A stretch of 64,000 bases of DNA. Source: Nematostella vectensis (lineage: Eukaryota). Both the position numbers and the translations under genes were made by a program. The notes beneath the pieces were generated by a model that saw only the letters and a list, made by a program, of their open reading frames with translations, was not told the origin of the DNA and did not search any database. The stretch spans positions 6,257,459-6,321,458 of the forward strand of contig NC_064039.1 in assembly GCF_932526225.1 (NCBI RefSeq), written 5' to 3'. This document shows positions 6,201 to 46,701 of this stretch, one piece after another (position 1 is the first letter of the stretch; each line of letters starts with the position of its first letter).

Positions 6201-9200
6201 GACAGTTCAACGACCATGCGCGATACGTTACATTTCACACGAAAGCAAAGCTCCTTGAGCAGCAACGCATACTCTGTCTATACAGCGCTTTTGTAGTAGA
6301 TATACGCTATTTCTCATAGAGTTTCGAAAATCCTTTTGAGCCCCTCACTTTTAGGCCAGCTCTGCAGCCCTTGATAGCAACTACATGGTGGAAAAAAATC
6401 TTCAACGAATCAATTTCTATTTATTCTCTGAACTTGTGCGTGATACTATAGTAGCTGCTGATTAAACTCTGTTTTTTTTATCGTAAATAAACTTACTAAA
6501 TTCTTCGCATACCATGAACTTGAAAACACTTTTTTGTCTTGTTGCAGTCGGCAGGTGTGTAAGTTCCCCTGCGCCATCCACGGCTTGTCGCTCAAATGCC
6601 GATCAAGGAGAACTGAGATGGTGGCTAACTTCGAGTTCAGACTTGACGAGAGTGTTATCTTCACGTCTCGCTTGTGTAACAATAGCTGCCTGCGATGCGA
6701 GGTAGAGAAAGGACTGCAGAAGTTCATAGCGGACTTGAGGCAGCTTGCTTCCAGTGATAAGTTCAACGTGACCCTGTCGGGTCAGGTTTTTACGGTCAAC
6801 GGAAAACCCATAAAAGTACCACGACTGCGCAACGCCTGTCCTCAAGGAAGACGGCGCAAAAACAAAAGACTCGGTAAGCGAATGACTTCAATGATAGTAC
6901 TATACATTTCCATCGCCCATATGTGTGAGTAAAGCGAGCCCTATCCTCGGGGACCCAGGGCGTTTCGGAGATCGGGCACACAGGGAGCGCGCGAAAAGAA
7001 AGACCTGTGTGCCCGATCTCCGCGACGCCCTGGGTCCCCGAGGATGAGCGAGCCCCATGGCGGCTGTGTTGTAGGCGCCCCCATCGTCAAAGGGAGGGGA
7101 GACGAGGGAGGGACTTTTTAGCTCCCCGTGCAATCGAAAGGATGCAAAGCTAAAGACTCTCTATAGGCAGAGAGGTAGCAAAACTGCAAAGCATTGGTGC
7201 ACGCCGACATTGGGAGATAAACATCATTCCCCTTTCACGCTTGAGCTTGGCTATCCTTTATGTCTCATATTCAGGATACGATAGCCACACCCCTAGCCAA
7301 AATCACGGATAGCCACACCCCTAACCATACTCACGGAAAGCCACACCCCTAACAATACTCATGGAAAGCCACACCTCTAACCACACTCACGGATAGCCAC
7401 ACCCCTAACCATACACACGGATAGCCACACCATAATACTCACGGATAGCCACACCCCTAACCATACCTACGGATAGCCACACCCCTAACCAGGCTCACGG
7501 ATAGCCACACGCCTAACTATATTCACGGATGGCCACTTTCCTAACCATACTCACGGATGGCATGGATTGTCGTTGCAGCTGGATGCCATCCTGGTATGTA
7601 CTTTGACATCTTCCTGCGGAGATGTGTCAATTGCACACGAGGATCCTTCCAGCCTCAACGCTCGGAGACCTTCTGCTTTCGCTGTCCTGGCAACAAGACG
7701 ACGCTGTACTCTGGCGCACGTGACCTGTCTCAGTGTAGAGGTATATGCGAGCAATATATAAAGGGGAAAACGAAAATCGGAAAAGAAAACCATTTATGTT
7801 GCTAACAGCAAGTAGGACAATAGTTTCCTATGGTAGAAAACATCTCATATATTATTGTATGCCTGCCTCACTTATAAAGAGGCGTAGCCAAGGGGTGGCC
7901 TAGGGGGACCCCCCCCCCCCTCTAGCAGCCAAAAATACAGTAAATGTATGAAACATTATCTAAAATACAGGAGAAAATGCCTTGAAAGGGCCTTTTGGGC
8001 CCCCTCCTGTTTAAAATCCTGGCTACGCCGCTGCTTATATTATGTCCAAGCCAGATTAGCCTACGTGTAGCCGCTGACTCGCGAAACAGCGGCTACACGT
8101 AGGCTAAAGCCAGATAGGCCACATAAATAAATTGCACATCCAGACACTAGGCTTACGGGGGTACTGCACATCTTGTCACTTCTGTAATACTTGCATTGCC
8201 TGTCCAGGGATTATAGAGTGCCAACACAGGAATTACACAGTGCCTGAAATAATAAATGGTGGGATCAGAATTTTGCACTATATAAACACCAAGCTGCATG
8301 TCCTTTTTTGTCTTGTAGACAAAGATAATAATACTATTTCGGGCTGTATATTAGCCACGCATTATGTGTGTTGGGGGAGGGGGCAGAATTTGTAAACGAT
8401 TTGTTGAATGTAGCTCCTAACCTTATTAAAGTATCTGCCAAAATTGGCTTGCAAGTACTGATTGGCTCAGAATGGTTTTACTGACGACACAGAAAACCAA
8501 AACAAATCGTGTTTGAAAAAAGCGGGTCGCGATACAACGGATTCGACAGTAATGTATGCACTCTCTTTGTTTCCATAGAAACAAAATGCGGTGGAAACCT
8601 GACATCAATGTCAGGCGTCATAACATCCCCAAACTACCCCGACGCCTACCCTCGCTTCCTGGAATGTACCTGGACAATCCATCCGCGAAGAGGGCGCAAC
8701 ATCTTGCTTCTTATTCCAAGTATCTCGCTTCCGACCACGCCCGACTGCTCGGACTATCTGACGATGCGGGAGAGTTCGAGTCCTTACTCTGTGTTTACAT
8801 ATTACGCGTGTGAGTCCTTCGATCAGCCCGTGGCGTTAGTGTCACGCTCCAAGAACCTCCATATCAAGTTTAAGTCGAGCCAGAACAGCATGGCGGAGGG
8901 ATTCAAAATATTTTATGTCACATTTGAAGGTAGGTGTCCTTTCCTTAGCTACGCACGTTTGGGTTCTTTGATTAAAAACAACAGCATTTTTACCTGTGTT
9001 TTTTAGAGCGTTTCAGGAACATTGTGAAACACATCGTTGAAGACGGGGAGTTGTATGCAAATGAAACAAACAGACGACTGCTTCAGGTGGGAACAACAAT
9101 ATCAAATTGTTTGACTAGACAGGTCCCTGGACATTGAAAGTTTTCTTGTCGGCTGTAAAAGTCCAGCATTTCTCAATTCTTTTAAATTTTGTTATCTCAG

Positions 9201-11950: not shown

Positions 11951-14900
11951 ACACCCCTAACTATACTCACGGATGGCCACTTTCCTAACCATACTCACGG
12001 ATGGCATGGATTGTCGTTGCAGCTGGATGCCATCCTGGTATGTACTTTGACATCTTCCTGCGGAGATGTGTCAATTGCACACGAGGATCCTTCCAGTCTC
12101 AACGCTCGGAGACCTTCTGCTTTCGCTGTCCTGGCAACAAGACGACGCTGTACTCTGGCACACGTGACCTGTCTCAGTGTAGAGGTATATGCGAGCAATA
12201 TATAAAGGGGAAAACGAAAATCGGAAAAGAAAACTATTTATGTTGCTAACAGCAAGTAGGACAATAATTTCCTATGGTAGAAAACATCATATATTATTGT
12301 ATGCCTGCCTCACTTATAAAGAGGCGTAGCCAAGGGGTGGCCTAGGGGACCCCCCCTCTAGCAGCCAAAAATACAGTAAATGTATGAAACATTATCTAAA
12401 ATACAGGAGAAAATGTCTTGAAAGGGCCTTTTGGGCCCCCTCCTGTTTAAAATCCTGGCTACGCCGCTGCTTATATTATGTCCAAGCCAGATTAGCCTAC
12501 GTGTAGCCGCTGACTCGCGAAACAGCGGCTACACGTAGGCTAAAGCCAGATAGGCCACATAAATAAATTGCACATCCAGACACTAGGATTACGGGGGTAC
12601 TGCACATCTTGTCACTTCTGTAATACTTGCATTGCCTGTCCAGGGATTATAGAGTGCCAACACAGGAATTACACAGTGCCTGAAATAATAAATGGTGGGA
12701 TCAGAATTTTGCACTATATAAACACCAAGCTGCATGTCCTTTTTTGTCTTGTAGACAAAGATAATAATACTATTTCGGGCTGTATATTAGCCGCGCATTA
12801 TGTGTGTTGGGGGAGGGGGCAGAATTTGTAAACGATTTGTTGAATGTAGCTCCTAACCTTATTAAAGTATCTGCCAAAATTGGCTTGCAAGTACTGATTG
12901 GCTCAGAATGGTTTTACTGACGACACAGAAAACCAAAACAAATCGTGTTTGAAAAAAGCGGGTCGCGATACAACGGATTCGACAGTAATGTATGCACTCT
13001 CTTTGTTTCCATAGAAACAAAATGCGGTGGAAACCTGACATCAATGTCAGGCGTCATCACATCCCCAAACTACCCCGACGCCTACCCTCGCTTCCTGGAA
13101 TGTACCTGGACAATCCATCCGCGAAGAGGGCGCAACATCTTGCTTCTTATTCCAAGTATCTCGCTTCCGACCACGCCCGACTGCTCGGACTATCTGACGA
13201 TGCGGGAGAGTTCGAGTCCTTACTCTGTGTTTACATATTACGCGTGTGAGTCCTTCGATCAGCCCGTGGCGTTAGTGTCACGCTCCAAGAACCTCCATAT
13301 CAAGTTTAAGTCGAGCCAGAACAGCATGGCGGAGGGATTCAAAATATTTTATGTCACATTTGAAGGTAGGTGGGGTAGGCACGTTTGGGTTCTTTGATTA
13401 AAAACAACAGCATTTTTACCTGTGTTTTTTAGAGCGTTTCAGGAACATTGTGAAACACATCGTTGAAGACGGGGAGTTGTATGCAAATGAAACAAACAGA
13501 CGACTGCTTCAGGTGGGAACAACAATATCAAATTGTTTGACTAGACAGGTCCCTGGACATTGAAAGTTTCTTGTCGGCTGTAAAAGTCCAGCATTTCTCA
13601 AATCTTTTAAATTTTGTTATCTCAGGTACGGAGTGTAATCCCTCAATTTGTTCAAGCATTCACCATTTCTCAAGCCCTTATAATTTTGTCAATCTCAGGG
13701 ACGGATCCAGGGTTGAACCCGTTTTATATGAAAAATTTCAGGTTACACTTTATCCTCGACCTCCTTTAATCGTTCAATTGTTTGCAAGTCTTTGTTATAG
13801 TCACCTCCCCCTCAGGTTGTCAAGATCAGCCTTACTGTATAAAGGCCTCCCCATACAACAATGCTGAGTGTTATGGGACTCCAGGCACGAGGCAAAGAGC
13901 GGGGCTCTGGGCCCGTATCCCCTCCCAATATTTTCAGAATTGTAAGGAATGGACCAGTAAGGGCGTGGCTGTGCCCTCCAATATTTTCTTAATGTTTTTG
14001 TATCGTGCCCCCAATATTTAGAGGCCTGCTACAGGTCTACACTGCCATGATGGTAACTCGATCAATTTTAATTCTCTTTTGACAGGATGAGACTCTTGTG
14101 CGCCAAATTCTGGACGTGATAGTAGACCCATCGAGCTTTGAATATTCAGTCAGCTCCAATCGCTTACACAGCAAGATTCCAAGTGGATTGCTAAAGTTCA
14201 TTGAAAATAAAGTGTACGACTTTTTCTCGAACGTCAGTCCTTACAGGAAAAAGCGAGCAACACAGAGATCAACTTTCGTCTGATTCGTTACCTGTTTGTA
14301 GTGTTCAATTACAAGTAGTTGGCTCTGTCCTCAGTTAGGAGCTTAATAGGACAAGTGATCATAGGAAACGATCAATAACCGACGGGCATTATAAGGGTAT
14401 TGGAAGCAGAAAGACAGATCTAGGAACTGGAATGTGTTTCCAAATGACTTTAGTGGCCTTTAAGCCTTGGCACACTGTAAGCAGACAGATGGGTATTATG
14501 ATACTTCCTAGAATAAGTTATAGGGGTCAGAGATGACAAGAGAATAATAAGAGTAGAGAGAATACAGAATGGAGCTCTTCCTACAGCTTATGAAAAGCCA
14601 ATTTTGAAGTTGAGTATACTAGAATTATGTGAATTTTACAAAGGGACTCAGTTTAGCTCGATAGTGCTAGACAGTGATTAGTTTGTATGGATTTTATTGT
14701 TTTAATACTGACAGATATAGAATGGATTCAACTGAGATAAAGCCAGAAGTTGATACTAAATGAAAGACATTTCCCTAAGTAAAACCACACAAAGGACACA
14801 TTTTCTTTTTTAAGAGTAGTAGACCTAGGCAAGACCCTCTGGGTCAACCAGTAACCATGGCTAAGATATCAGATACCACAAAGGCCTGTCATGTTAATTT

Positions 14901-15904: not shown

Positions 15905-17052
15905 TCACAATAGAGCATCTCTGCCTTCTCTTTGCTTAGACAGTTCCTTCTTCACAAGCTTTTCAAGTTCAAATAGATGATTGTCACACTGATGATCATG
16001 TTCTGTAATTTTTTCAATTACTGCAGCAAGGTTTAAGAGGTACTCAGAGTTTTTGCCACTTGTACCTTTAGAGTGAGCTATTTGATAAGCTATCTCAGGC
16101 AAGGGTGCTGGACCAAGATAAAACTCATTTTCTTGAGTAGCAACATAAAGCATCACCTGAAATTGCTCTTCTAAATTACCACTTGGATGGAACGTTGTAA
16201 AACCAGCAGTGTATCCATCCTTTTCTCTGATATCAAGGTACCTCAGAACACTTGGTACATCTTGAGCATCAACTTGATAGGAAATACCCCAAACTGTGCT
16301 CTAAATGTAAAACAGAGTTATGTTTCCTTTTCCATGGTGTGTCACTGGGGCATAATTTGAAAAAGTTGACAAACCACATCAGGTACCACATATCAGGTAC
16401 CACTCAACCAATGCCTTCCGTTCACTAAATGGCCCCCATCTCTCCCCTTTACTGATATCCATAGAATCATAGAGCATTGGCATCGATTCTGTCTGTCCCC
16501 TTCCTACCCTTTCAACAACGACAGATAAGCACCCCAACCTCGATGAGCCACTGGGCTTTTCAATGAACAAAAAGTACCCCAACCTCGATGAACCACGGGG
16601 CTTTTCAATCATTTTCAGTAGTGGATTTGTTGTTGAGCTGTTGTCATTGGGACTATTTGGTGGACTTGTAAGGTTTAGGGTGTAACCTAAACTTGAAGCC
16701 TAAGCAGTTTATATGTTATATTAACTTAAGTAACGTAATAAATTTGCTGTGTAACACTACCTTGGAATCTGGCAGTAGCGTTGCCACTCTCCCTGGCTGG
16801 AAAAAAATCACATTGGATATGAAATCTTCAAGTTATGGCAGTCGTTTAATAGAAAATCTGACGCTGAATACTTAGTACCTTTCCTGGAACTCCACGGTGG
16901 TCACAGCTGCCTTGATAAAATTTTCGCACATATCCCTTGATGTAGCCGGCGACTTTCTTCTTGTAAGGAAAATCGACCTTCCAAACCAGAGAACCATAGC
17001 CGAAGATCCAAAGATCTTGGCCTTCTTCAAGAACAAAATTGTCGCCAGTCAT
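15905..17052 (-). CDS. CHAC2: ChaC-family glutathione-specific gamma-glutamylcyclotransferase (CHAC2-like), 3 exons
   Basis: Exons 16879..17052, 16761..16796 and 15905..16300 (201 aa). Product: [41 protein letters not shown]|[12 protein letters not shown]|[45 protein letters not shown]. This matches ChaC hallmarks (YGSLxWK, HRG.PG.PGRV.TL). The ORF-track start at 17058 is a TTG; the first ATG is at 17052. Confidence 0.85.
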
Positions 17053-22822: not shown

Positions 22823-25800
22823 ATGAGTAATGTTGTGCGAATACAGCCGTTGCAGTACGTCCACGTACAGGATCTGGTATGCAAACGGCCTCAACACCAA
22901 AAGATTCTTTCCTTCACTGTAGTTATTTTATCATAGTCCTTCAGCCGTATTAATTTTCCGGTTTGCTTTCGATAAAAAAAAGCTTCTTATTTCTTATACT
23001 TAATTATATTGTAAACAAAGTACACCACCCCCATTACAAAAGCGTTCTTTAGCGATAATTGCAAGTCATTTTGTATTTAAATTTAAAGCTGGTCTATCCA
23101 GAGACACACAAAACTGCATTTTTTTGTATTGCATTTAAGCTCATTTTCTTCTCTCATCAAATAAACGATAATATGTTCTTATTGCAAACAAATATTAACC
23201 ACTGCTTTGTATCTTGGTAGATTTTTAAGTGAGAAAATATTTAACTTAAAAAAAATAATTCTTGACACTTTTGTATTCTTAACTGTAGAATACCAACATC
23301 ACCGTGCTGGAGGTTGGCCCAAAATGCATGATACTACAGGATAATTATGTATTGGTGAAAGGTCCTTTGCCGTTCATCGTGGTACCCCCTGGGCATTACT
23401 GCGTTATTGAAAACCCTGCCACGTGAGTATCTGCATGCACTGTCCCCAAATCTGGACACTCCCCCACCCATAGGCCCAAGTTTATGGACCTAGAAATGGA
23501 CCACAGTCTATAAAACCAGACAAGGACTTCCCAGTCTGAGTGGGGATAAATACTAGATATAATAGTTTCACATTTTGGGAATGTATGGATACCACTTGAA
23601 TGTTGAGGTAATTTTGGTCACATATGGAGCCATAAAGATGTCCATGTTGTCCATTGGTTTAGGGAAATTTAATTAACCAAGATTTCATTTTGATAGTAAA
23701 AAAACTAAAAAAATATGCACCAGAGAATGCTGCTACATATAAGGCCCTTGCTCATTTTGGAAAAAAATATCCAAATTTGTTTCAAATGGTCAGAAATGTA
23801 CTAAAATAAACACATTATAAAAAAAATTGATTTATCTAAGAAAAGAAGACCTTATTGTGCATGCTTTTGATTTTAGTGATACCCATGAACCAGGCAAGCT
23901 GAGCAATCTACGCCATGGTTATAGAGAAATGAGGTTCCATAAGGTAAGATATTAAATTGTGTTGATTTTTGCTCAAAGAATTATTCATAAATTTTGAAAA
24001 TTGGGATTTTTCATTAAAGGAGCCCTTTCCACTTTATCCTGGAGAGATTCTTGTTGGAGTGACTGATGAAAAAGGTTAGTTGTTCTTCTGTCAGTTTTTG
24101 ACAAATATTGTGTAATGGAAATTGTCATGAAGTATAGGAAGGCAGCTAGGCAGAATTAGGTGAGGAAGGTGTACAGTCCTATGTACCATATGGAAAAAGG
24201 ATAGTATTTGTGGATCATTCAATAACAAATTACCCACTTTTTGTGGAAAACACACAAACTATAAGCACCCCCCCCCCCATGTACACACCTAATCAGGGAC
24301 TTGTATGGTACACAGCAGCAATGTTAGTGTGGACTATGCTTGTTTTTGTTTTGCAAATGTTAGAATATATCTTTGAATGTATGATAGCAATCATGGATAA
24401 AAAAGCATCAAAAATGAAAAAAAGTAAAACAGGTGTAGCAAGGATTGATCTTAACTGTTCTATTTCTGCAATTAAAACATCCCTGTTTTCTATTTCTCAA
24501 GACTATTATAAAGCCATCAAGAAAGTTCCTGTCATAGCACCAGACCAAGGACTAAGGCTATGTGCCACTGTGGATCACATAGATGGGGAGGTGCAGCGAG
24601 TAGCAGGAGAAATGTGGCAACTTGAAGGCCCACTCACCTACCATCCAACTCCATATGCAGTGAGTATCCCTTACCTACCATCAAACCTATATGATGCAGT
24701 GAGTATCCCTTACTTACCATCCAACTCCATGATGCAGTGAGTATCTCTTACCTATCAGCCAACTCCATGATGCAGTGAGTATCTCTTACCTATCATCCAA
24801 CTCCATATGCAGTGAGTATCCCTTACCTATCAGCCAACTCCATATGCAGTGAGTATCCCTTACCTACCATCCAACTCCATATGCAGTGAGTATCCCTTAC
24901 CTATCAGCCAACTCCATGATGCAGTGAATATCCCTTACCTATCAGCCAACTCCATATGCAGTGAGTATCCCTTACCTATCAGCCAACTTCATATACAGTG
25001 AGTATCCCTTACCTATCAGCCAACTCCATATGGAGTGAGTACCCCTTACCTACCATCCAACTCCATGATGCAGTGAGTATCCCTTACCTACCATCAAACC
25101 TATATGATGCAGTGAGTATCCCTTACCTATCAGCCAACTCCATATGGAGTGAGTATCCCTTACCTACCATCCAACTCTATATGCAGTGAGTATCCCTTAC
25201 CTACCATCAAACCTATATGATGCAGTGAGTATCCCTTACCTATCAGCCAACTCCATATGGAGTGAGTATCCCTTACCTATCAGCCAACTCCATATGCAGT
25301 GAGTATCCCTTACCTATCAGCCAACTCCATGATGCAGTGAGTATCCCTTACCTATCATCCAACTCCATATGCAGTGAGTATCCCTTACCTAACAGCCAAC
25401 TCCATATGGAGTGAGTATCCCTTACCTACCATCCAACTCCATGATGCAGTGAGTATCCCTTACCTATCAGCCAACTCCATGATGCAGTGAGTATCCCTTA
25501 CCTATCAGCCAACCTCATATGCAGTGAGTAGCCCTTACCTATCAGCCAACTCCATATGCAGTGAGTATCCCTCACTTACCACCCAATTCCATATGCACAA
25601 AAGGAAAAGGTTAGGCTGTTTAGGGGTTGTTTTGTATTTAAAAGGTATTCAGGTATTTTGTTTCTTCTACTTTGTTGACAGGAAGTGACATCAACCATCA
25701 AAGCCAGCATTATCCACCCTGGGGAGGCAATAAGGCTCAAAGCAAAGCAAGATCTAATAGACAAACATGGAAAGTAAGAAGTCTAAAATAAGATATAATT

Positions 25801-28800
25801 AATAATAGCAATGACCTATCACAAATAAGTCATATTCGACCTCACTGCTTGGCATACACTAGCAGGGGTGGGTCCGGGGATTTTTGAAGGGAAAGAGGGT
25901 GGATAGGTGTGAAGGCAACCTCCGCAGCACCCCCTTGATCCACTACTACCTAGCTACAAGCACACAATTCTTTATTCACAGATACTTAAAAATAATATTA
26001 TTTTAATTGGGGCATACTGTTTTCAGAGCCACACCTTTGCACATAACATGTTTATTAATCTGGTTATCAATCAGGTTATACACCTATAGCAATTAAGGTG
26101 ATCTATAAAAAATGGAAAATGATCAATGCCAAACACCACTGGTCAATGAAAACAAGTCTTGTATCTGTTTATAACATTTAGTGGGGCTAAATCATAGCAA
26201 TAGCAGGCCACATAAGATTGGGGGAGGGGGGCACAATACAACAACATTAAGAAAATATTTGGGGGGGGGACGCCCCTATTGGTAATTTCCTTATAATTTT
26301 TGAAAATATTGGTGGGGGTCACATGCCCCCAGTGCCCCACCCCCTGCTATGGCAATGTAATGAATGAATGAATTTTTAATACAAGAAAACATTATTATTT
26401 GCCAAACTTTGTTCCATCCATTCTCTTATAGTCAAACTTTATTGAAATAGGGGAATATGATGTTGGGGAAATAAAACTTGTTACCACCTCGCCTTTAAAA
26501 TGAACTCTGCTTCTGGGTGTTGTCTTAGGAAACGAGTTACTGGTGAGGAGTGGCTGGTGCGGGAGCCAGGTGCTTATTTGCCAGGAATCTTTGAACAGGT
26601 GTGAATCAGTGGAAAAAAAACTAGTGTGTTCATAGTAAAGTTGATTTCTCTTCGTGCAACTATGTAGTGAAAGGACCACTGGGCCCCAATTGGTCTTTTG
26701 TGAGCTCTTGTGAGCATTTGCTGTAAAAGCACCCTAAAATATTGTGAACAATTGGACATTGCTGGAAATTAAAATATTTGCTTTGGAATCGTAAACAATC
26801 TGTAGTAAAAAAGTCAAGCATGTGGACATTGGAAAAGAAATGCATACAAGCATCCAAACTTTTAAAATTTATGGGACCATTAAGGCCCTTTTGGATAAGA
26901 AACTTACTTCTTGCCTTCCGCTGACCATATATTTGCAGGTCAAAGGTGTCCAGGGAGCCTACACACTTACTCTCGAAAATGCCTTGCATATGATGGCCAA
27001 GGAAACATGTACTGATGGCCTCGGGAAGAAAAGGTGATTGCATATTATTACTCAACTTTTGCTTAAGAGTCGCATGTACTTATCTAGGAAAGTGTTCTCA
27101 AATTGCGATAAAAAGAGGCATTGATTGTAAAAGCGATGCCTGATTTAGAGGGTCATGGAACAATAGCAGATGTTCATAGGCCTTTAGTATGAGTTAGATC
27201 CACGACACCGGAAAGAGGATGATGGTTTGTGCATGTCTGATTGCACACACATCCATTTCTTGCAGATATCACATTGTTTTTAGGACAGCATTTCATGCTT
27301 TCCCTTGCCCCAACAGGATCTGGCACTGGCAAAAATAAGTTTGGATACAGAATGAAGCATACAGAAGCCAGTGCTACCGGAATCGTAGACCTAAATCACC
27401 CTTTTGTTTCTATGGAAGGGGGATCTTTCTCTCATTACTGTACAACTGCAGCAAACCTTTAATTGTATACCCTTGAATACCATGTATCTTAGATATCAAT
27501 TATAGAAACTATTAACTTTCTAGTTTTGTTCAGCATTTGGCCTATTCAATGAAGATAGTTTTGTTCAGCATTTGACCTATTCAATGAAGACTAGTGATGA
27601 AAAACACTTGGTCAAAGCCATCTCTTTGGTTTTGCTTTTAATGTACAAGCTGATGTAACATCTCCTCTGGTCTTGCCCTCTAGAAATGCTGGTGATGAGT
27701 GGCTTGTCACCATAGATGATACTGAATCTTATATCCCAGAGGTTTCCGAGGTGAGATCATGGCCCCAATGTTTTAGATTTCCACTTTTCTCATGCTATGA
27801 TAAGGTTCTTCTAATCACACTGACTGAGAAATAAGCGCAAAAAACTTTCCCGTCAAGAATATACATTTAAGTAGCTTGTGATTGGAAATAATTGATGAGA
27901 TTCTGTAGGCTGCTTACATTTGAGTTGCCAATTAAACAAAATTCAGCCTATATACATAGAGCTTGTGTTCTTGTGGGCTAGTTTTGGGGTCCAAAAATAT
28001 GGGGCTGTGTGAAAATGTGCTTTTTGATGGTAGTAGTGATCTTAATCACATTCTTTCTTTGTAGCACTTAGTTAAGCAAGTCAGCAAGACAATCCTGAAG
28101 AAAAGCCAGTTTTGTGTGGTCTTAGATCCAGTCAACAGCAAAGGGAAAAATCAGCTGGGCAAAAAAGAGCTGCGTAAGGGGGTCATTTCCTTCTTCTTGC
28201 ATCCAGGTAAACACCGGTGTATAGATTACATATCTTTGCTCAAAAGTGTGATAGATGATTTTGTTTCTTAAGGATAATTGCATGCTCATAGACTACACGC
28301 CATGCCTCACCTCAAACGTCCAGTTCAACTTTGCAATATAAAATTATGTGATTTTTTGGGTGGCAAACACGCCGAAACAGAAATGGCCGTGTCCCTCGCA
28401 CCAGAGAGCGACGAAAAGATAAAATCTGTCAATGAAAATGATTTTTTAGGGATGAGTACGTCGTTTTTTATTGTAATTATATGTCACCAAAAGACGGAGC
28501 ATGCGCGAGTCCAAAAAGTCACTTGATCTTCTAGTGCATGTCGCCCTCTCTACCTTGACAAGGCTTTTCATTTTAATTTGTCTTTTGTGTTTTACACAGT
28601 AAGGTTTAGATTTCAAAGGGAATGGATTATTACTCAATACAAAGGCAGTAGGCAATTACTTGGACATTGGCTTGGCTTAGGGCTCGTCTCACTATATCTG
28701 ATACATGATTTTCTATATTACATCAGGCGAGTCTCTCGAAGCGGGGGTACAGACCGCCCACATCCTTGAAGCCGATGAGTCGCTTGTCCTGTCAGCTGTC

Positions 28801-31800
28801 AACAAGTTTAAGGACAATTCTTATCCTAAAGGTAAAAGCATGTTTTTTTTTTTTGTCGTCAATCATAATTCCAACTGATATAAACATATGCGTGCATTGC
28901 TCATGGATTCCAATTATTATTCCTGCCCATTCCCATTTGCTTTCTCAAAATTCCAATTGACAACGTGTGTCTTCAAGCATTTGCGCGTCTTTACCAGGAG
29001 ATTTCTCTTAATTTCCTCATGATTTCTAATGACGCGTGCTTGCTTATCATCACGGTGCATCGCTTATTGTTTTCTTTTTCTTTGATGGTTTCCTATTGAT
29101 GACATGCGTTCGTTGATAATCAGCGTGTACTTAACCATCGTTGCTTATTCTTTTCTTATAATTTCAATTGATGACGCACGTTCCTTTATCATTAGCGCAT
29201 ATTGCTCATTGTTTTCTCATAATTCCAATTCGTGATTTGCGTTCTTTTTAGCATTAGCGCGTATTGCTCGTTGGTTTCTCATAATTCCAATTGATAAAGC
29301 GCGTTCTTTTATCATCAGCGCGTATTGCTTATTGTTTTCTCATAATTCCTATTGCTAACGCGCGTTCTTTAAGCATTTTCGCGTATTACTCATTGTTTTC
29401 TTAAAATTCCTATTCATGACGCGCGTTCTTTTAGCATCAGCGCGTATTGCTCATTGTTTTCTCATAATTCCAATTCGTGATGTACGTTCTTCTAAGCATT
29501 AGCGCGTATTGCTCAATGTTTTCTCATAATTTCAATTGCTAACGCGCGTTCTTTTATCATCAGCGCGTATTGCTTATTGTTTTCTCATAATTCTTATTGA
29601 TAAAGCGCGTTCTTTTATCATTAGCGCGTATTGCTCATTGTTTTCTCATAATTCCTATTGATGAGGAGGTTATCATATAAAAGAAATAAATGAATGCTAT
29701 GCTATGCTCTGGCTTACGGATAACACGGAATAGTTAAACCTCATCAATAAAGCGAATACAGTAGATGCCTTCTCTTGTATCGTGCGAGTATTAGTGACCA
29801 CAATAATGAGCATATAATCAAATGAAATGGGTATTTGAGATCCAAGGTGCCTCTTGACGGTGATAAACCCATCTCGAGCATATTTTATTTGATCCCTCAG
29901 AACCGGTTACCCGTCTTCCTGGTGATCGATGGATGATTCTCGGCCCCATGGATTACGTACCTCCAATCGAGGTCAAGATTATCGCCAGGAGGTATCGTAT
30001 AATATTCTATTTATACAGGTGAATGTATTGCTGGCTTGTGTACAGTGTATTCTAGGCTAAAGGCTTACGTATCATTGTAAAACCGACGTCGCGAGCGACG
30101 CCTGTCACTTTTATAGGCATACTATATCGTCAGACTAACTAAAACAAGTGCTGACAATTTTGACTTTCAGGAAAAACAATTTTGCTTAAAGCCGCATTGT
30201 CACCAGTTTACTTCCGGTCGATTATGTAACAATCTCCGATGATTTTTAACGGAAAACGCGAACAATATTTCAAAATATTTAAGGCAGTGTGTCTATTGGA
30301 AGTTTCTTCGAGGATGTGATCGATAATTTAGAGCAGATGGCCTGTTGAATATCTCGGATTTTAATAGATCCTTTTGTCTTTTAACGGTTAAGGTTTCCGT
30401 CGGACCTCCGGAAGTAAACTGGTGACAATGCGGCTTTAACTAGAATGTTTCTACCTATACTTAACATAGCATTATTGTTGTATTTTAGGAAAGCGATTCC
30501 CTTGAATGAAAATGAAGGCGTATATGTGCGAGATACACAAAGTGGAGCTGTAAGTCATGGTCATACCAAAGCCATGCGCGAGTTTCCTGCGATTAATATT
30601 ACAATAGGGGACTTGCGCTAAGAGATCACGTGACTGTTTGGGTGGCAAACGCTCAGGCTTTAAGCGGCAAAATAACAGCAACAAAAAGCAACTTATCAGC
30701 GCTCACGTGAAAAGCCAGAATTCTTTTCTGTCAGAAAGTTTCATTTAAAGATTTTATTTTTTCGTCGTTCTCTTGTGTGACGGGCGCAGTCATTTCTGGT
30801 TTTGTTTGTTTTATTATTTTGTTTTGAATCTGCCAACCAGAAAGGTCACGTGATCTCTTAGCGGCTATTTATTGTATTTGTAGGTACGCGCCGTTATGGG
30901 TCCTCAGTCATATCTCCTCAACACATTTGAGGAGCTCTGGGAGAAGGAACTCCCCGATGACATGGAAAAAATTCTCAGGTGGGATCATCTGTCACCGCTA
31001 ATCTGAGTTGTGCATATTTTAAATTGTTTGGTTTTCCTTTAAGCACACAGTCCATTCTATTCTTGAGTGAGAGTACTTTCTTGAGTGAGAGTACTTTCAA
31101 ATCAGACAACAGTTCCCGGTATAGACGTCCATATTGTCTACAATACTCAACCAAACATTGTGATGTTAAAATCCGTACATGTTATTGGTTCTTTTGTTGG
31201 TCGTTATAGTTAATGGCATGGCATTACTGTCGAATCCGTTGTATCGCGACACTGCTCTTCAAAACATCGATTTGTTGTTGTCTTTTGGGGTTTTCTGTTC
31301 CGCCTGTCAAATTATTCTAAGCCAATCAGATTCATGCCATCTCTCGCCTAGTGGAGTAAGTACGCAGCTGCTTTGTCTCCTATTATCTTTGTTTTACAAA
31401 GGAGTTCTTTTGTCTCTATTCTTCTCGTTCTTTGTGTCGAGGTGCGAATATTGTTCATTTGCCCAATCAAATTGCAGCTTGTAAGAGCTGCGTACTGACC
31501 CGCCTAGTGCAGTTGCCTGGCTTTCTGTTGCAAAACTGTCTTGTTTTTGTCCAGAGGATAGCCAGGGAAGTGCACAAAGCAAGACTCTGATTGGCTCAGA
31601 ATGGTTTTACTGACGAAACAGAAAACCAAAACAAATCGTGTTTTGAAAAAGTGGGTCTCGATACAACGGATTCGACAGTAATCCATTTACATGCCCTTTA
31701 GCAAATATAATAAATACTTTTTAGAATTTTCTATTTTCATGGTTTAGAGATTTGTACCCCTATTTTGTTTGCAGACAAGGTGGGGGCTTTGGCTCTGAGG

Positions 31801-34800
31801 ATATCCGCAAGTTGGCTTACTTTGAGTCATCAATCGATCCTGCCCTCGCCAAACATGGTGTAAGCTTGACATACCACACCCATGTCCGCTACATGTGGCT
31901 AAACACCACGCCCATCCAATCTCATGCCAATCCTACCACACCCATGTCTGCTACCTCTGGCTAAACACCACGCCCATCCAATATCATGCCAATCCTACCA
32001 CACCCATGTCTGCTACCTATGGCTAAACACCACGCCCATCCAATCTGATGCCAACCCTACCACACCCATGTCCGCTACCTCTGGCTAAACACCACGCCCA
32101 TCCAATCTCATGCCAATCCTACCACACCCATGTCTGCTACCTCTGGCTAAAGACCACGCCCATCCAATCTGATGCCAATCCTACCACACCCATGTCCGCT
32201 ACATGTGGCTAAACACCACGCCCATCCAATCTGATGCCAACCCTACCACACCCATGTCCGCTACATGTGGCTAGACACCACGCCCATCCAATCTGATGCC
32301 AACCCTACCACACCCATGTCTGCTACCTATGGCTAAACACCACGCCCATCCAATCTCATGCCAACCCTACCACACCATTGTCCGCTACCTCTGGCTAAAC
32401 ACCACGCCCATCCAATCTCATGCCAACCCTACCACACCCATGCTCGTCCCCTTTGATTAAACACCAGGGACCAGTTCCTGAAAGGCCGATTAACTTAGCC
32501 CTAGATCAGCTGTAGATTAGCCTAATCCCGGGTTAAAATACGCTGATCGTGGGTTAGCTAACCTACGGATAACTCACACAAAGTTTGGGAGGCCTGTGTT
32601 ACGCCAACTAAACCGTAGGTTAGTGAGTTAACCCACCTCGCGAGTAGGGTTAGATTTTACCTTCAAACTAACCCAGAGTTAGCGTCAATGCGGGGGTGAA
32701 CATTTAATCGGGGTTAGGGCAAATTTATCCCTGGGTTAGCGCTAATCGGCTTTTCAGGAACCGGCCCCAGGAATACTAGAGCATTCCATCCAGGATTGTA
32801 ATAAAACTTGTGTTTTATATCCATCGTGTCTGACAACCCATCACGCCTCTCTCATAATCCCGGATACAACAGGACCCATTCTTCAAGGTTATTTCATGCA
32901 TTTTTCTCCCTTCCAGGGTCGTGATAAGACTCGTGTCGTAGTCTATAGGTGTCCTGGAAACACAGCTGTTCAGGTTAGCAAATTATTCATAGTTGTTTTG
33001 TTGTTGGCCTTAAGCCTCACTTAGCTCTTCTATTACAGGTATACGACTATCGCAGGAAATCAGCTCGATTCATATTTGGACCAGATTTGGTGAGTGACTT
33101 TACTCAAGTTATCTTCAAATACCCCCCCCCCCCCGCCCCTCCCCTCCCCCCCCCAATACAAGGATCACACCGCCTATTTCTTGTTGTTTTAGATGCGATT
33201 TATAAAAAAAAAAATATTCCTTCACGACTGAAGCCAAAACGTGTCTTCTGTTGATTACAGTATACGTTTTGACGATTAAAGCGACTCGATTCGTCCTGAT
33301 GAGCTCCATATTCCTCCATATGTCCGTCTCGTAGTGTTTTTAAGAACGACTGTTACGACTGGTATGACTATATGTCGCATGACTTCACTTACATAAAGTG
33401 TGTCTTGCAGGCGGTGCTTGGACCCCACGAGAGTTTTAATGTGCTGAGCCTTAGCGGTTAGTGTTCAACCCATGTTGTCATGCTAAAGGGGTGCTTAAAG
33501 GTGGTCTATAAAAAGGTGGTCGTTTCATACTATCGCATTGACTGAATTTAATGTAAAGCTGCATCGTCGACAGTTTACCTCAGGTCGAGTACGTAACAAT
33601 GTTAATGTCAAATAGCGCGGATTCTAATAGGTTCTATTGTCTTTTAACGCTTGAGCTTTCCGTCGGACCTTCAGAAGTAAACTGGTGACAATGCGTCTTT
33701 ATAAAGCATCTGTTGTTGTTTTAGATAGCCGTCATGAGTTTGATGTCATTATATTATTTAGCCGCTATTTTATTATATTTCTTCGATCAATAATCCCCTG
33801 CCTAGGAAATTAAATAGAGGTCGAACATGGGCAACCACATGTGGCCCACAGTATTGAAAGAGGCGCGAGGCGCACAATGGATTATATAGATCACTTTTTC
33901 TTTCCCAGTAACCATTGCACACCACGAAAAAAAGCTCGTCCTCCCGAGAACACCTTGCGTTCCTCTTATCCTGCTCTTCCTCACAGTTTTAGCTACTAAG
34001 TATAAGTCTGATCAAATATACTAAGTATAAGTCTGATCAAATATACTAAGTATAAGCCTGATCAAATATACTAAGTATAAGTCTGATCAAATATACTAAG
34101 TACAAGTCTGATCAAATATACTAAGTACAAGTCTGATCAAATGTACTAAGTACAAGTTTGATCAAATGTACTAAGTACAAGTCTGATCAAATGTACTAAG
34201 TATTAGTCTGATCGAATGTACTAAGTAAAAGTCTGATCAAATGTCTTTTGGCAGCCGGTAAGCCTAAACGTCCAAACGCCCTAAAGACAATCTGCCTGAT
34301 GCTAGGACCTGATTACATCACAGACTTGTTGGAGGTGAGCCCCCAGAAATTGTATCAGGAAAAAAATAAGCCCTTTTATAACAGTTAGGAGTATTTCACA
34401 CCTCAGTAACTCACAGACACCAAAAGCAAGAAAGTGTTTGACTTCTATTATTTTACAGCGCGAAAACCAGAGGCATTCTAATGTGTTGACGGTCTCGCGA
34501 AATACGTTTTGTCTAAAGATGTTAATGCTATTTTATCATAACTATTAGAACGTTGTGGTTGGAAATAGGGGCCTCGGGGGTCTATTGACACTCGCATAGG
34601 GCCTTGATTCGGGATTTCTGAATACCTACACTCGTGTTGCACATTTTAGGTGGAGACCACGGACCATGCAAGACTTCTGATCAAGATAGCCATGAACAAT
34701 TATTTCGACGTGAGTATCATAATGGTGTTCGTAAACTGCATGATATATATCCTGTATCTTTACTGATAAGGATTCGGTCGCATGTTAAAACGCGCTATGT

Positions 34801-37800
34801 ATTGACATATAAACGGAGTAAGGGCCATTTTTTAAGAAGTACTGTAGTACGATAACTCAGGAAATTAATGAGAACATAGCTTCTATAATCTATGGATTTT
34901 CCTCCTTCACATAGGTATGTCTTTATTGCAGGTTGATCCGTCTGATCCAGAAGCAGTGAAGGACATGTTTTCAGTACCAGACTTTATTGGATTCGTCTGC
35001 AAGAATATTGGTAAGTGTTTAAAGTTTATGATTCCTTTCCTCCCATCAACATTAGCGTTGTAAAAAGAGAGAAGATAAGATAGGAAAGAAAGTGAAGCTG
35101 TTGGAAATAACTTAAATTCTAGCTCTTAGGTTTGGTTTCAAGGTTAGGTGAAAAGTTCGAAAATGCTTGTCAGTACTGTATCTTTACGTGGCGTGGTTTT
35201 TCAGCGAGTCGCATCCGCGCTAATGTCGCGCAGGTGACGTTTGACGAGTTCCATCGCTACTCAGCCAAGATCATCAGGAAGGCGGTGTTTGGAGTGGATG
35301 AGAAAGGAAATGTCAGGAACAGACTGCGATTTGACGATAATCGATTGGTGAGTACTCATGATTTGGGTGTTTCAGCCACAAAGACTGCAAATAGAACATC
35401 CCAATTGACATATTGATATCGACAGAAGCAACAGAAAGTTAAACGTTTTTTATTATTATAAAGTTTTGCTCCACCCTAATGTAAGTTGGGTAGTATATGC
35501 TCAATTACGAGGGCTTAAATGAAAAGCCGTCTACATTACGGTAACGTTGGAAATAATCTCCCTCTACTCCCGGCTGCCCTTCGTTCTCCATACGTTTCTC
35601 TTGTGGGTCTGAATAGGGATGGTGATTGCATTCTCTTAGTGCAGCTTAATGTTTGCAACGGCTTTCACAAGTGACCATCCGCACGTCAATAGCCCTCGGC
35701 AGCATTCCCGTTTTGACGCACGTCTGTGGCTGTTTTCTATGCAGGTGGTGACTAACATAGATATCCAGAGCATCGAGCCTGTTGACCTGAATATGCGCGA
35801 CAGCCTCAGCAAGTCTGTGCAGATGGCCATTGAGATCTCCACAAAGTACGTCCATTACGTATAGACACCATACCACATTGAGATCTCCACAAGGTGCCTC
35901 CATTACCTATAAATTGCATACCACATCGTGATCTCAAAATAAATAGCATACTATCCATTACACTTCCATTTTTTTACCTCGTTCTCTAAAACGCTCCAGT
36001 GGTTTCGATTGTTTCAGGCAATGCCATGTATCAGTGTATTAGACAACCCCCCAGTAGTTCAACTCTCTTGTTTCGTCTAGATCTATTGAGATGGCTGCTG
36101 CACAGGAAGCCAAAAGAACGGAACAAGCTGCCCGAGGACAATTAGAACGACAAAAACTCACCAACGAAAAGGTAACTAAACTTATGAAACAAAAATACCA
36201 CCAGGAGGGTTCTGCCCATCTATTAGAACCATTTTGTGTCGTTGACATAGATTTTTGCATACAATGAATGGACTATAATTGTTTGCAGGATGCTGAGGCT
36301 GCCCGTAAGAACCTTTATGAGCTCCAGGCAATAACAGCAGCTGTAGAGTCGTCAGGGCAGACGAAAGCTGAGTCCAAGGTAAGGTGTCCATCTTACTCAT
36401 ATTTCTTTACCCCTTTTCTGTGGTCCTTCTACTTACTTTTTCCCTCCCCCTTCTTCCTCATTCACATCCCCCTTATTTACATCTTCTTTCCCTCACCCAA
36501 GCTTCATCCTCTGGATCCCTCATCCTCTTTCCCTCCTTCCTCCTCCACATCTCCCATACTCTTCTCCCCCTCCTTCTTCTTACACGTCTCCCATACTTTT
36601 TTCCCTCCCCCCTTCTTCCTCCTCCACGTCTCCCATACTTTCCCTCCCCCTTCTTCCTCCTTCACGTCTCCCATAATTTTTCCCTACCCCTTCTTCCTCC
36701 TTCACGTCTCTCATAATCTTTCCCTCCCCCTTCTTCCTCCTCCACGTCTCCCATACTCTTTCCCTCCCCCTTCTTCCTCCTTCACGTCTCCCATAATCTT
36801 TCCCTCCCCCTTCTTCCTCCTTCACGTCTCCCATACTCTTTCCCTCCCCCCTTCTTCCTCCTCCACGTCTCCCATACTCTTTCCCTCCCCTTCTTCCTCC
36901 TTCACGTCTCCCATACTCTTTTCCTCCCCCTTCTTCCTCCTCCATGTCTCCCATACTCTTTCCCTCCCCCTTCTTCTTCCTTCACATCTCCCATAATCTT
37001 TCCCTCCCCCTTCTTCCCCCTCCACGTCTCCCATACTCTTTCCCTCCCCCTTCTTCCTCCTTCACGTCTCCCATACTCTTTCCCTCCCCCTTCTTCCTCC
37101 TCCACGTCTCCCATACTCTTTCCCTCCCCCCTTCTTCCTCCTCCATGTCTCCCATAATCTTTCCCTCCCCCTTCTTCCTCCTTCACGTCTCCCATACTCT
37201 TTCCCTCCCCCTTCTTCCTCCTTCACGTCTCCCATACTCTTTCCCTCCCCCTTCTTCCTCCTTCACGTCTCCCATACTCTTTCCCTCCCCCTTCTTCCCC
37301 CTCCACGTCTCCCATACTCTTTCCCTCCCCCTTCTTCCTCCTCCATGTCTCCCATAATCTTTCCCTCCCCATTCTTCCTCCTCCACGTCTCCCATACTCT
37401 TTCCCTCCCCATTCTTCCTCCTCCACGTCTCCCATCTTCTTTTCCTTTCTTCTTCCTTTCTCCTTCACGTCTTCCATACTCTTTTATTTATCTCCATCTC
37501 CATTATCATCTTAATTCTTTATGTATTTTTCTAGGCAAAGGCGGAAAAACTCTTGATCGAAGGTCAAAGTGCGATAGAATGTAAGTTTAATTCAGGCGCA
37601 CCATCCGTTCACGGAGGATATGTTACTTGTTCGCGAATGAATGATCACAAATACGATATGTGGCCTAACTCAGTCAACGTTTCGATAACGAAAACCACAC
37701 CTAAAAACACACTTGCAACCTTATTATTAATCTATTTCTCAGCAACACCTTCATTTAGAGTTGTTAAAGTACCTGCGTAATTAATGCGTCCTTGACTTTA

Positions 37801-39269
37801 TCAGTGGCCAGGCTGAAGGCAGAAGCGGCGCAGATAGAACTACAAGCGGAGTTGGAATCAAGAAAGATAGTAAGTTTGGAGGGTAATCGTGCGAGAATCT
37901 TTTTCGCCAGGTGTTTTTTTCTCTTGTTATGAATGTAAACTTAACGGGATTTGATAAATGAAATGGTGCTAGCATTCCATTACATATCTTTTTCAATAAC
38001 TAGACAAAGAGCTTTGTAATATGATATAAATGATAATGCTGTATATGCATTGAAAAAAGTAAAAGCATCACACAACAGGGCGTCGGATGTTTGTCGTTCT
38101 ACAGAAACGCGAAGGGGAGCTCGACTTCCTTAAGAAGAAAAACGAACAGGAAATACAGCGTGCCAAAGAACTGGCGGCCGTGGAGGTGAGAGGTGTTTTG
38201 AGATGGTTGCTCTGTGTTGGTGTTGTGTGTTGTTGTAGGTGAGGTGTTGTGTGTCGTTTTAGGTAAGGTGTTGTGTGTTGTTGTAGGTGAGGTGTTGTGT
38301 TTTATTGTAGGTGAGGTGTTGTGTTTTGTTGTAGTTTAATTGTTGTGAGATGGTTGCTTTAGGGTTAGGTGTTGTGTGTTACTGTAGGTGAGGTGTTGTG
38401 TGTTGTTGTAGGTGAGGTGTTGTGTTGTGTTTTGTTGTAGGTGAGGTATTGTGAGATGGTTGCTGTAGGGTTAGGTGTTGCGTGTTGTTGTAGATGAGGT
38501 GTTGTGTTATGGATGATGTGGGTTTGTTGTTGTGAGTGATTGGTACTGTCTGTTGGAGTGTTGTCGGTTGAATGGTTGACGAAAAGCATTTTCCATCCCC
38601 AATTCAAGGTCGCCAAGTTCTCAGCCAAGGTGAAATCAATCAAGCCAAAAACAATCAGCAACATCGCTAAGTCAGGACCGCGCTCGAAGGTAAACAGCGA
38701 TAAGCGTTAATCTTTTTCTTTGTCGTGTTTTTCCAATAAAACGAACCCAACCTCAAATAGATACAGCGCTGGCAATTTTCAACGCAATGGGAAGTAGTCT
38801 TGCGCCACTACCAAACAGCTCCAGCATTTTTGGCAAACACCAAGGGCCCTTGCAAGAACCTTTTTTGGCGTGAGGGAGGGGGACGGGGGCATGGACAGTC
38901 CTTGTTTTCATATGTGGGGGGCCAGTAGGGCTGCGATTGGGGTGAAATCCATGGATACTAAGCATTGTCGCCAAGGACTCCTTTGTCTAGGATTAACCGA
39001 GAAGGGCCGTGCTAGCAGTGTAAAATTGTGCTGGCAGTTAAATGTATAGTGACGCAACAGTGAAGACAAAGCCATAGCTACCAATACTACAACTACTATT
39101 GCATGAAGTTTTATTCGGCTTACTCTCAACTCTCTCTCTTTCCTTTCAGGCGGAGTTGCTCCAGTCACTTGGAATAGAACAAGCTCTCATTACGGATGGC
39201 AAGACACCACTGAACTTGTTCCAATCAGGTGGACAGATAAGTACAACAGTGTTACGCGGTGCGCCTTAA
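22823..39269 (+). CDS. MVP: Major vault protein, complete 30-exon gene (853 aa)
   Basis: Exons: 22823..22876, 23289..23422, 23877..23943, 24020..24074, 24502..24659, 25682..25773, 26529..26598, 26939..27033, 27684..27750, 28065..28206, 28727..28831, 29901..29991, 30489..30549, 30884..30978, 31775..31859, 32917..32973, 33039..33089, 33411..33456, 34255..34334, 34650..34709, 34932..35010, 35205..35347, 35745..35845, 36081..36171, 36289..36378, 37535..37580, 37805..37869, 38105..38185, 38609..38689, 39150..39269. All junctions are GT-AG and the summed length of 2562 nt stays in frame. The product is colinear with MVP: [18 protein letters not shown].., repeated ..GEEWLV.. vault repeats, [91 protein letters not shown]. 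Confidence 0.93.
24640..25606 (+). repeat. 37/38-bp minisatellite that reiterates the MVP exon-5 3' end plus its splice donor (~25 copies)
   Basis: The unit is CCAACTCCATATGCA|GTGAGTATCCCTTACCTATCAG. The first copy is the real exon 5/intron 5 junction at 24659/24660. Confidence 0.9.
28975..29665 (+). repeat. 61-bp minisatellite in MVP intron 11 (~11 copies)
   Basis: The unit is GCGCGTATTGCTCATTGTTTTCTCATAATTCCAATTGATAAAGCGCGTTCTTTTATCATCA. Confidence 0.9.
30189..30436. mobile_element. Stowaway-like MITE with TA target duplication, in MVP intron 12
   Basis: The TIRs are AAGCCGCATTGTCACCAGTTTACTTCCGG ... CCGGAAGTAAACTGGTGACAATGCGGCTT, flanked by TA on both sides. Confidence 0.75.
31860..32445 (+). 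repeat. 62-bp minisatellite in MVP intron 15 (~9.5 copies)
   Basis: The unit is ACCACACCCATGTCCGCTACATGTGGCTAAACACCACGCCCATCCAATCTCATGCCAATCCT. Confidence 0.9.
33556..33699. mobile_element. Internally deleted copy of the same Stowaway-like MITE family, in MVP intron 18
   Basis: The TIRs are AAGCTGCATCGTCGACAGTTTACCTCAGG ... CTTCAGAAGTAAACTGGTGACAATGCGTCTT, flanked by TA. It shares the internal block TTGTCTTTTAACG.TT.AG.TTTCCGTCGGACC with 30189..30436. Confidence 0.7.
33994..34243 (+). repeat. 25-bp minisatellite in MVP intron 18 (~10 copies)
   Basis: The unit is TACTAAGTATAAGTCTGATCAAATA. Confidence 0.9.
36440..37480 (+). repeat. 40-bp almost pure-pyrimidine minisatellite in MVP intron 25 (~23 copies)
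   Basis: The unit is TTCACGTCTCCCATAATCTTTCCCTCCCCCTTCTTCCTCC. It generates long spurious ORFs on both strands. Confidence 0.9.
38190..38560 (+). repeat. Irregular GT-rich ~22-24-bp minisatellite in MVP intron 28
   Basis: Variants of GTTGTAGGTGAGGTGTTGTGTGTT. Confidence 0.8.
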
Positions 39270-46255: not shown

Positions 46256-46270
46256 CCTGGGGGCTATTCT

Positions 46271-46281
46271 GGTCTAAAGAC
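46271..46281 (+). promoter_or_regulatory. Degenerate early-type box GGTCTAAAGAC upstream of ORF 46301
   Basis: It lies 20 nt before the ATG and carries one mismatch to GGTTTAAAGAC. Confidence 0.3.
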
Positions 46282-46300
46282 GTATGAGACCCTAGATAAA

Positions 46301-46561: not shown

Positions 46562-46652
46562 TCCACGGATGTGGTGCGGAGGCTTTAGACCGCACCGCCC
46601 CCACGCGGACCCCTTCGGAAGTCTTAGCAACCACACACATCACACCCAGAGG

Positions 46653-46674
46653 GAGCTCGAGGGGCTAGCCTCTC
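46653..46674 (+). other. Palindromic motif copy GAGCTCGAGGGGCTAGCCTCTC (upstream of the TFIIB-like gene)
   Basis: Non-coding copy, ~30 nt upstream of the early box. Confidence 0.6.
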
Positions 46675-46701
46675 AGCTTCACATCTAAAAAAGCTTTTGA
46701 A

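Follow-up and report, generated by a model that had tools for sequence, protein, structure and literature searches.

Which 5' splice site does a gene use if the end of an exon, together with the donor of the following intron, has been reiterated many times head to tail, and what becomes of the surplus copies? This question is raised by a 37-bp minisatellite in the major vault protein (MVP) gene of the sea anemone Nematostella vectensis, a cnidarian, located in a stretch of 64,000 nt (RefSeq assembly GCF_932526225.1, contig NC_064039.1, positions 6,257,459 to 6,321,458 of the forward strand). The whole stretch is here called the window, and coordinates refer to it unless another sequence is named. 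We regard it as probable that the array is an intronic minisatellite, and a probable variable number tandem repeat (VNTR), which was expanded from the exon 5/intron 5 junction, that its most upstream donor is the productive one while the downstream copies (pseudo-donors) are outcompeted, and that the arrangement is no adaptation.

The host gene and its authentic donor

The host gene is MVP. The peptide obtained by joining position 24659 to 25682 matches the Pfam Vault repeat (PF01505) at 1e-17 and aligns to MVP chains in the PDB at about 1e-20, ungapped across the junction, and the matches to a 617-aa query carry PF17794/5/6, PF01505 and PF11978 and identified N. vectensis as the source. RefSeq isoform X1 (XP_032222601.2, 853 aa) is encoded in the window, with 100% identity, by 30 coding exons that are separated by GT-AG introns, and our conclusions on gene structure rest on this exact spliced mapping. 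Coding exon 5 (24502..24659, plus strand, 158 nt; likewise identified by the Pfam and PDB alignments) ends in phase 0 with the residues TYHPTPYA, and coding exon 6 occupies 25682..25773 (plus strand). Intron 5 extends over 24660-25681 (1022 nt, phase 0) and, minus the array, would measure about 97 nt; its unique 3' end with the acceptor ...ttgttgacag| lies at 25598..25681 (plus strand). The gene identity, the borders of exons 5 and 6 and the exon numbering proposed in the first-pass annotation of this DNA all agree with the RefSeq X1 mapping.

RefSeq X1 uses the first donor, 24659|24660, and splices it to 25682. This authentic, most upstream 5' splice site, gca|GTGAGTAT (24660..24667, plus strand), is marked out likewise by the co-linearity of its product with homologues and by the position of the orthologous intron in Actinostola and Porites. 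The homologues aligned include corals, an octocoral, a jellyfish, a hydroid, a brachiopod, a sea star and an oyster, and the first-donor product is ungapped at the junction against nine MVPs from cnidarians, a brachiopod, an echinoderm and a mollusc. Together with the ungapped alignments to homologues and PDB chains, the X1 model suggests that the most upstream donor most likely makes the productive mRNA. The authentic donor is the first copy, as had been proposed, and it is the one with a co-linear product.

Structure of the array

The minisatellite forms a single array at 24636..25597 (plus strand), for which Tandem Repeats Finder (TRF) reports a period of 37, 25.6 copies, 90% matches and a score of 1457, with higher-order periods of 112 and 413 nt. 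A pattern search with the 32-nt core of the unit yielded 15 matches at no more than 3 mismatches, against none in 100 shuffles; the array is real and far beyond chance. The same search found no unit outside 24636-25597 within the 64-kb window, on which ground membership in a dispersed repeat family was rejected. A coding role of the array was likewise rejected, as no open reading frame (ORF) longer than 63 aa occurs within it on either strand.

The first 24 nt of the array are the end of coding exon 5 (24636-24659, codons of TYHPTPYA), and the repeat unit consists of these 24 nt of exon followed by the first 13 nt of intron 5. Indexing of every AGTGA[GA]TA yielded 25 donor-like sites, namely the authentic one at 24660, 23 copies with GTGAGT, and a single copy with a weakened core, GTGAAT (24924..24929, plus strand), at spacings of 37, 38 or 39 nt. 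The authentic 11-mer over positions -3 to +8 (gca|GTGAGTAT) is exactly repeated in 17 of the 24 downstream copies, and GTGAGT is retained in 23 of them. The last pseudo-donor (25561..25568, plus strand) lies 121 nt upstream of the acceptor, and a degenerate terminal partial unit without donor (ACTTACCACCCAATTCCATATGCA) occupies 25574..25597 (plus strand). TRF and donor indexing thus bear out the earlier observation that the array reiterates the real exon 5 donor, with some corrections in detail: the unit lengths of 37 and 38 bp reported first are both present, but 39 nt occurs as well; the part of the exon covered by the repeat measures 24 nt instead of 15; and the donors behind the authentic one number 24 and not about 25.

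Copy number in two assemblies

The array is present in two independent assemblies and is not an invention of either. The 2007 assembly (GCA_000209225.1, scaffold DS469510.1) contains the same junction, followed by an array with 10 donors (10.6 copies) as against 25 donors (25.6 copies) in the window. In a global alignment the two differ by a single gap of 562 nt, corresponding to a block of 15 units (24831..25392, plus strand) that is present here but not in the 2007 allele, while the flanks show 12 mismatches over 833 positions (1.4% divergence). The order of unit variants reads ABCDEFGHIJKAJLAJEGMNOGPQ in the window and ARCDSOGEE in the 2007 assembly; variants R and S are private to the latter, and the terminal units are common to both. 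In both alleles the first two donors lie 39 nt apart.

That the array or its length was produced by mis-assembly of repetitive reads is an explanation to which we attach very little weight. The disagreement on copy number between the assemblies speaks for it, but the array occurs at the same junction in both, the terminal units agree, private variants are present, no N gaps lie close by, and the internal unit variants form an ordered, non-degenerate map. Moreover, other arrays of the locus differ between the assemblies in both directions, for example a 25-bp array with 10 copies here and 18-19 there. From these sequences a true VNTR is the likely interpretation. The first-pass annotation had anticipated a length polymorphism, for which the 10 and 25 donors provide provisional support, and had named absence of the array from another assembly as a sign of assembly expansion; the 2007 assembly has the array.

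Consequences of donor choice for the protein

The authentic donor adds no nucleotide and yields the 853-aa MVP. The first pseudo-donor (24699..24706, plus strand; junction 24698|24699) adds 39 nt, in frame and without a stop, and if spliced to exon 6 gives the junction ...CTATATGATGCA|GAAGTGAC and a predicted protein of 866 aa with 13 residues inserted. The second (24737..24744, plus strand) adds 77 nt, shifts the frame, and would terminate after 183 aa at a stop 4 nt past the junction. Pseudo-donors 3-24 add 115-901 nt, and all of their products include the in-frame TGA at 24738..24740 (plus strand), located inside the GTGAGT of the second pseudo-donor, with a predicted product of 182 aa. The same TGA ends the exon 5 read-through ORF (176 aa) at 24740, about 100 nt into the array and exactly where it had been placed before. 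Premature stops are predicted from 23 of the 24 pseudo-donors; the earlier statement that use of any downstream copy shifts the frame is wrong for the first one, at +39 nt.

It is possible, though in our view rather unlikely, that this first pseudo-donor is used appreciably, either constitutively or in a regulated manner, which would yield an MVP isoform with 13 additional residues at the boundary of two vault repeat domains. Its 11-mer is identical to the authentic one, and the in-frame spacing of 39 nt is found in both alleles. In particular, the 2007 JGI gene model (EDO49176, XP_001641239, UniProt A7RH80) splices from the first pseudo-donor and hence carries the 13 residues. In the AlphaFold model (mean pLDDT 69, locally about 85) a loop (residues 150-155) ends at the junction and a strand (156-163) follows immediately; the insertion would extend this inter-repeat loop, keep the Y-x-A|E context and leave the strands intact, so that such an isoform would not be structurally absurd. 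A precedent is provided by the human genes IFI6 and CBS, in which the first two pseudo-sites of comparable repeats are used, according to PMC1557585.

On the other hand, the insertion is missing from every aligned homologue, and in the multiple MVP alignment it is unique to XP_001641239. This record (979 aa) departs from the 853-aa model in three places, by the 13-aa repeat-derived insertion, by an insertion of about 59 aa and by a C-terminal extension. The second of these, following ...ALAKHG, looks like a retained intron, and the C-terminal extension is wrong. Because the model has these other obvious errors, its donor choice is weak evidence for the isoform. Units of 39 nt also occur at two other places of the array, and an in-frame first unit is expected by accident in about 1 of 8 cases. 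Among the proteins retrieved, RefSeq has no isoform of this kind. The array itself accounts for the spurious-looking 13 residues in this widely propagated record (A7RH80 / XP_001641239).

Choice among equivalent donors

Because the core strength is the same for almost all copies, the choice of donor must depend on position or context. The 80 nt preceding the array contain 61% purines, against 41% in the array, which has no purine run of at least 6 nt and 24 pyrimidine runs, one per unit. A purine-rich tract of exon 5 (GGGGAGG ... AGGAGAAA; 24585..24612, plus strand) is found upstream of the authentic donor only, and from its composition we infer that it may act as a splicing enhancer. RNA structure offers no comparable distinction. 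The fold of the array is unremarkable (z = -0.12) and its sole inverted-repeat signal is the 14-nt junction core common to all units, and masking of the pseudo-donors by structure was rejected on these grounds.

We propose, by analogy with intron 7 (IVS7) of the human F7 gene, that the authentic donor wins by position, being the 5' splice site that comes first after the exon 5 acceptor; it would also be favoured as the only one adjoining purine-rich exon sequence. The pseudo-donors, embedded in a pyrimidine-rich repeat, are probably competent and outcompeted. Leaky use of the first would lead to the in-frame protein with 13 additional residues, and leaky use of later ones to a substrate of nonsense-mediated decay (NMD). 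As to donor use in vivo and its cause, Nematostella MVP probably behaves like genes of the F7 type.

Several points weigh against this account. Reed and Maniatis in 1986 and Eperon et al. in 1993 reportedly found that among equal and fully occupied 5' sites the one nearest to the 3' splice site tends to win. Because these classical duplicated-site experiments favour the donor nearest the acceptor, they predict use of the last copy, the opposite of F7. The use of the first two pseudo-sites in IFI6 and CBS, according to PMC1557585, means that exclusive use of the first donor is not to be assumed. RefSeq X1 is a computed model. A 270-aa N-terminal query for RNA-seq-derived Nematostella fragments retrieved only distant MVPs at no more than 64% identity, and two metagenome/metatranscriptome scans gave no match to a spliced junction of either the authentic donor or the first pseudo-donor with exon 6. 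Finally, the repeat could have collapsed in the 2007 Sanger assembly, in which case the difference in copy number would not represent a true allele. As the junction sequence is identical for most donor copies, short-read RNA-seq junctions at this locus can be assigned to a donor only with more than 25 nt of upstream context.

The preference for acceptor-proximal sites is likewise the basis for a reading in which the array dampens expression: in a substantial part of the transcripts, splicing from downstream donors or retention of the array would feed NMD, MVP output would fall as copies rise, and the VNTR would be a cis-acting modifier. The premature stops predicted from 23 of the 24 pseudo-donors are consistent with this, as are the apparent alleles with 10 and 25 donors. 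Functional introns of 65 and 76 nt exist in this gene, so that the 121-nt intron that splicing from the last pseudo-donor would leave is feasible. In addition, the reference list of PMC1557585 includes a report whose title links the 31-bp VNTR of CBS to reduced enzyme activity. In F7, however, downstream pseudo-sites did not compete as long as the upstream site was intact (PMC1557585), and the MVP gene is intact and conserved over all its 30 exons, so that a strong loss of output would be selected against. We consider a dampening effect improbable.

The spacers contain a further kind of signal. An acceptor-like CCCTTACCTA(T/A)CAG occurs in 14 of the 24 spacers, 15-16 nt upstream of the next donor; it results from a derived unit variant, TACCAT -> TATCAG, which creates the acceptor-like CCCTTACCTATCAG (e.g., at 24825-24833). 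Together with the following donor the motif outlines a candidate 15-nt in-frame micro-exon, CCAACTCCATATGCA, corresponding to PTPYA. Classification as recursive splice sites or RS-exons (YAG|GTRAGT) was rejected, as the motif does not abut the donor but lies 15-16 nt away from it, and so was classification among the NAGNAG or GYNGYN tandem sites, which comprise two sites 3-12 nt apart as opposed to 25 sites at 37-39 nt. That the array is more than a set of silent decoys, be it by unit-to-unit splicing through the acceptor-like CCCTTACCTAYCAG present in 14 of the 24 spacers, by inclusion of 15-nt PTPYA micro-exons, or by a copy-number-dependent MVP output via NMD or via U1 loading on the 24 strong U1-binding sites, appears from the sequence decidedly improbable. 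If true, it would represent a cnidarian VNTR that tunes the level of a vault protein or inserts variable loop repeats, and it would allow a test outside mammals of whether preference for the most upstream donor is ancestral for the spliceosome of metazoans.

Origin of the array

Comparison with other anthozoans provides insight into the direction of change. In Actinostola sp. the orthologous exon ends with ...ccttatgcc|GTGAGTATtg (donor gcc|GTGAGTAT), and in Porites lutea with ...ccttatgct|GTATGT. The counterpart of TYHPTPYA is TYKPTPYA in both, and in both a phase 0 intron of about 590 nt, without tandem array, follows directly after PTPYA. Because the junction is conserved without the array in these two taxa, the exon end and the GTGAGTAT donor are ancestral, and the array is a derived expansion from this junction in the Nematostella lineage.

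The reverse sequence of events, in which insertion of a pre-existing dispersed satellite with a chance GTGAGT supplied the present end of exon 5, is a formal possibility that many unrelated minisatellites at the locus may bring to mind, but we find it scarcely credible. The capture of the exon end is contradicted by the conserved, array-free junction of Actinostola and Porites, with TYKPTPYA at the same phase 0 intron position, and the unit is found nowhere else in the window.

For the expansion from the ancestral junction we envisage that a 37-nt segment across it (24 nt of exon, 13 nt of intron) was duplicated in tandem, and that slippage or unequal exchange then enlarged the array, multi-unit steps included. 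The ancestral donor would have been kept as the first copy, with the 24 look-alike donors behind it. A contribution may have come from the 14-nt junction core, ACTCCATATG[C/G]AGT, a palindrome that overlaps the donor GT and occurs in every unit (e.g., 24648-24661). Its ancestral form matches at 13 of 14 positions and it is perfect in four units (25023-25036, 25137-25150, 25250-25263 and 25399-25412). Judged from its sequence, this core could form a small DNA or RNA hairpin and perhaps favoured slippage.

The whole MVP locus is a minisatellite hotspot. Arrays of at least 130 bp make up about 10% of the window, and within the span of the MVP gene their share is 22%; four of the six intronic arrays of MVP lie within 12 nt of a splice site. 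By a crude estimate, a random 37-bp duplication in the MVP gene spans a donor core with a chance of about 5%, and at least one of six arrays does so with a chance of about 27%, and one junction-spanning array at this locus requires no special explanation. Minisatellite formation, which is very active at this locus, most likely produced the array as a by-product that would be neutral or slightly deleterious and not an adaptation.

Repeats of possibly similar nature are present in the MVP locus of Actinostola sp., where two 2-copy tandem duplications (periods 125 and 112) include exon sequence, and where the gene model has a VVLMTMVV...GDGDHDDEYVN repeat, translated from an 84-bp intronic minisatellite, inserted in the cap-helix region (repeat coordinates in that locus: 7348-7606, 13729-13956 and 16531-16764). 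These repeats could have been introduced by assembly or annotation, or they could be genuine duplications of a junction or an exon, of broadly the same kind as the array in Nematostella.

Other features of the locus

Three further MVP arrays adjoin splice sites and occupy 31872-32442, 33994-34242 and 38190-38542. Behind the exon 15 donor a 62-bp array begins at a distance of 12 nt, and behind the exon 28 donor a 24-bp array at about 4 nt, whereas a 25-bp array (TACTAAGTATAAGTCTGATCAAATA, with the branch-point-like TACTAAG / CTGAT) precedes the exon 19 acceptor and stops 12 nt short of it. The last may reiterate a branch site about 10 times, or 18-19 times in the 2007 assembly, judging from the resemblance of its motif. 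Other arrays of the locus likewise vary between the assemblies, in both directions: a 40-bp array has 23.9 copies in the window and 8.2 in the 2007 assembly, where it adjoins an N gap, a 32-bp array has 45 and 36, and the 25-bp array 10 and 18-19. The arrays compared include those at 36531-37484 and 39458-40896 of the window and at 26386-26717 and 28600-29749 of the 2007 scaffold.

A Polinton/Maverick-like element of about 16.6 kb is located at 45749-62383 and appears to be a complete copy. Its terminal inverted repeats (45749-46261 and 61894-62383, 97% over 239 nt) are built of 23/36/59-bp tandem sub-repeats. The element contains an rve integrase (56971-57963, plus strand) and, on the minus strand, a Pox_A32-type packaging ATPase (55044-55691), a 1308-aa ORF with a polymerase-B-like FTDTDS motif (57912-61838) and a 412-aa ORF of capsid size without Pfam match (55699-56937), besides several further intact ORFs.

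Comparison with known junction-spanning repeats

Nature rarely puts to the test how the spliceosome selects one of several equivalent sites; arrays of identical 5' splice sites provide such tests. Literature searches on Nematostella minisatellites or splicing found nothing relevant. The MVP array is a new cnidarian case of an already described kind and not a new phenomenon. In particular, the use of such an array as a natural experiment, suggested in the first-pass annotation, is not new, since the F7 IVS7 minisatellite was so used in 2006 (PMC1557585).

The closest counterpart is the 37-bp VNTR in intron 7 of human F7, which has 5-9 copies and a first monomer lying across the boundary of exon 7 (Borensztajn et al. 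2006, PLoS Genet 2:e138, PMC1557585). Only the most upstream of its identical donors is used, although the pseudo-sites are competent (PMC1557585; restated in PMC6627357). When upstream sites were inactivated, the next site was used and exon skipping increased, which the authors explained by 5'-to-3' oriented scanning together with effects of exon definition (PMC1557585). The MVP array shares the traits that define this type, with head-to-tail units in the range of 10-100 bp, a first monomer across the exon/intron boundary and identical pseudo-donors behind the authentic donor. In both genes the annotated mRNA derives from the most upstream site and the use of most pseudo-sites would truncate the protein, and F7 is length-polymorphic, as the MVP array appears to be from the comparison of two assemblies. 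The common unit length of 37 bp is a coincidence.

The two systems differ in several respects. The copies number 5-9 in F7 and 25 in MVP (10 in the other assembly), and the exon contributes 4 nt to the monomer in F7 but 24 nt in MVP. The F7 donor, UGG|gugggu, is weaker than gca|GUGAGUAU of MVP. Splicing of F7 was assayed with 50 minigenes, whereas the MVP array is known from its sequence, and the hosts are a mammal and a cnidarian, respectively.

Other repeats of this kind, in human genes, are summarised, with the original reports cited, in PMC1557585. The minisatellite in intron 2 of IFI6 (6-16) follows the authentic donor with about 25 pseudo-sites, of which the first two are used constitutively (Turri et al. 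1995, NAR 23:1854, via PMC1557585). By that summary IFI6 resembles MVP in its almost equal number of pseudo-sites and in that the nearest ones give usable in-frame products; in IFI6 the first two are used, whereas in MVP the sole in-frame pseudo-site is the first, whose use is hypothetical. The same source (with its refs 10-13) reports a 31-bp VNTR with 15-20 copies at exon/intron 13 of CBS, where two pseudo-sites are used, and repeats of 100 bp in LMNB2 and 81 bp in PDGFA, where only the authentic site is used. As described there, these three likewise reiterate an exon/intron junction, but differ from MVP in unit size, gene and phylum; their sequences are unrelated to that of the MVP array, which implies independent origins. 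NAGNAG acceptors and GYNGYN / GYNNGY donors are a more distant parallel, in that near-identical competing sites arise from local duplication, with two sites 3-12 nt apart in contrast to 25 copies at a spacing of 37-39 nt in MVP.

The human F7, IFI6 and CBS cases back a rule by which the most upstream donor wins, in conflict with the classical acceptor-proximal results. To these the MVP array adds an independent and much larger case in an early-branching animal tractable in the laboratory, with 24 strong pseudo-donors, apparent alleles of 10 and 25 copies and one pseudo-site in frame, and it would show if the upstream rule found in F7 is general to animals and if copy number affects expression.

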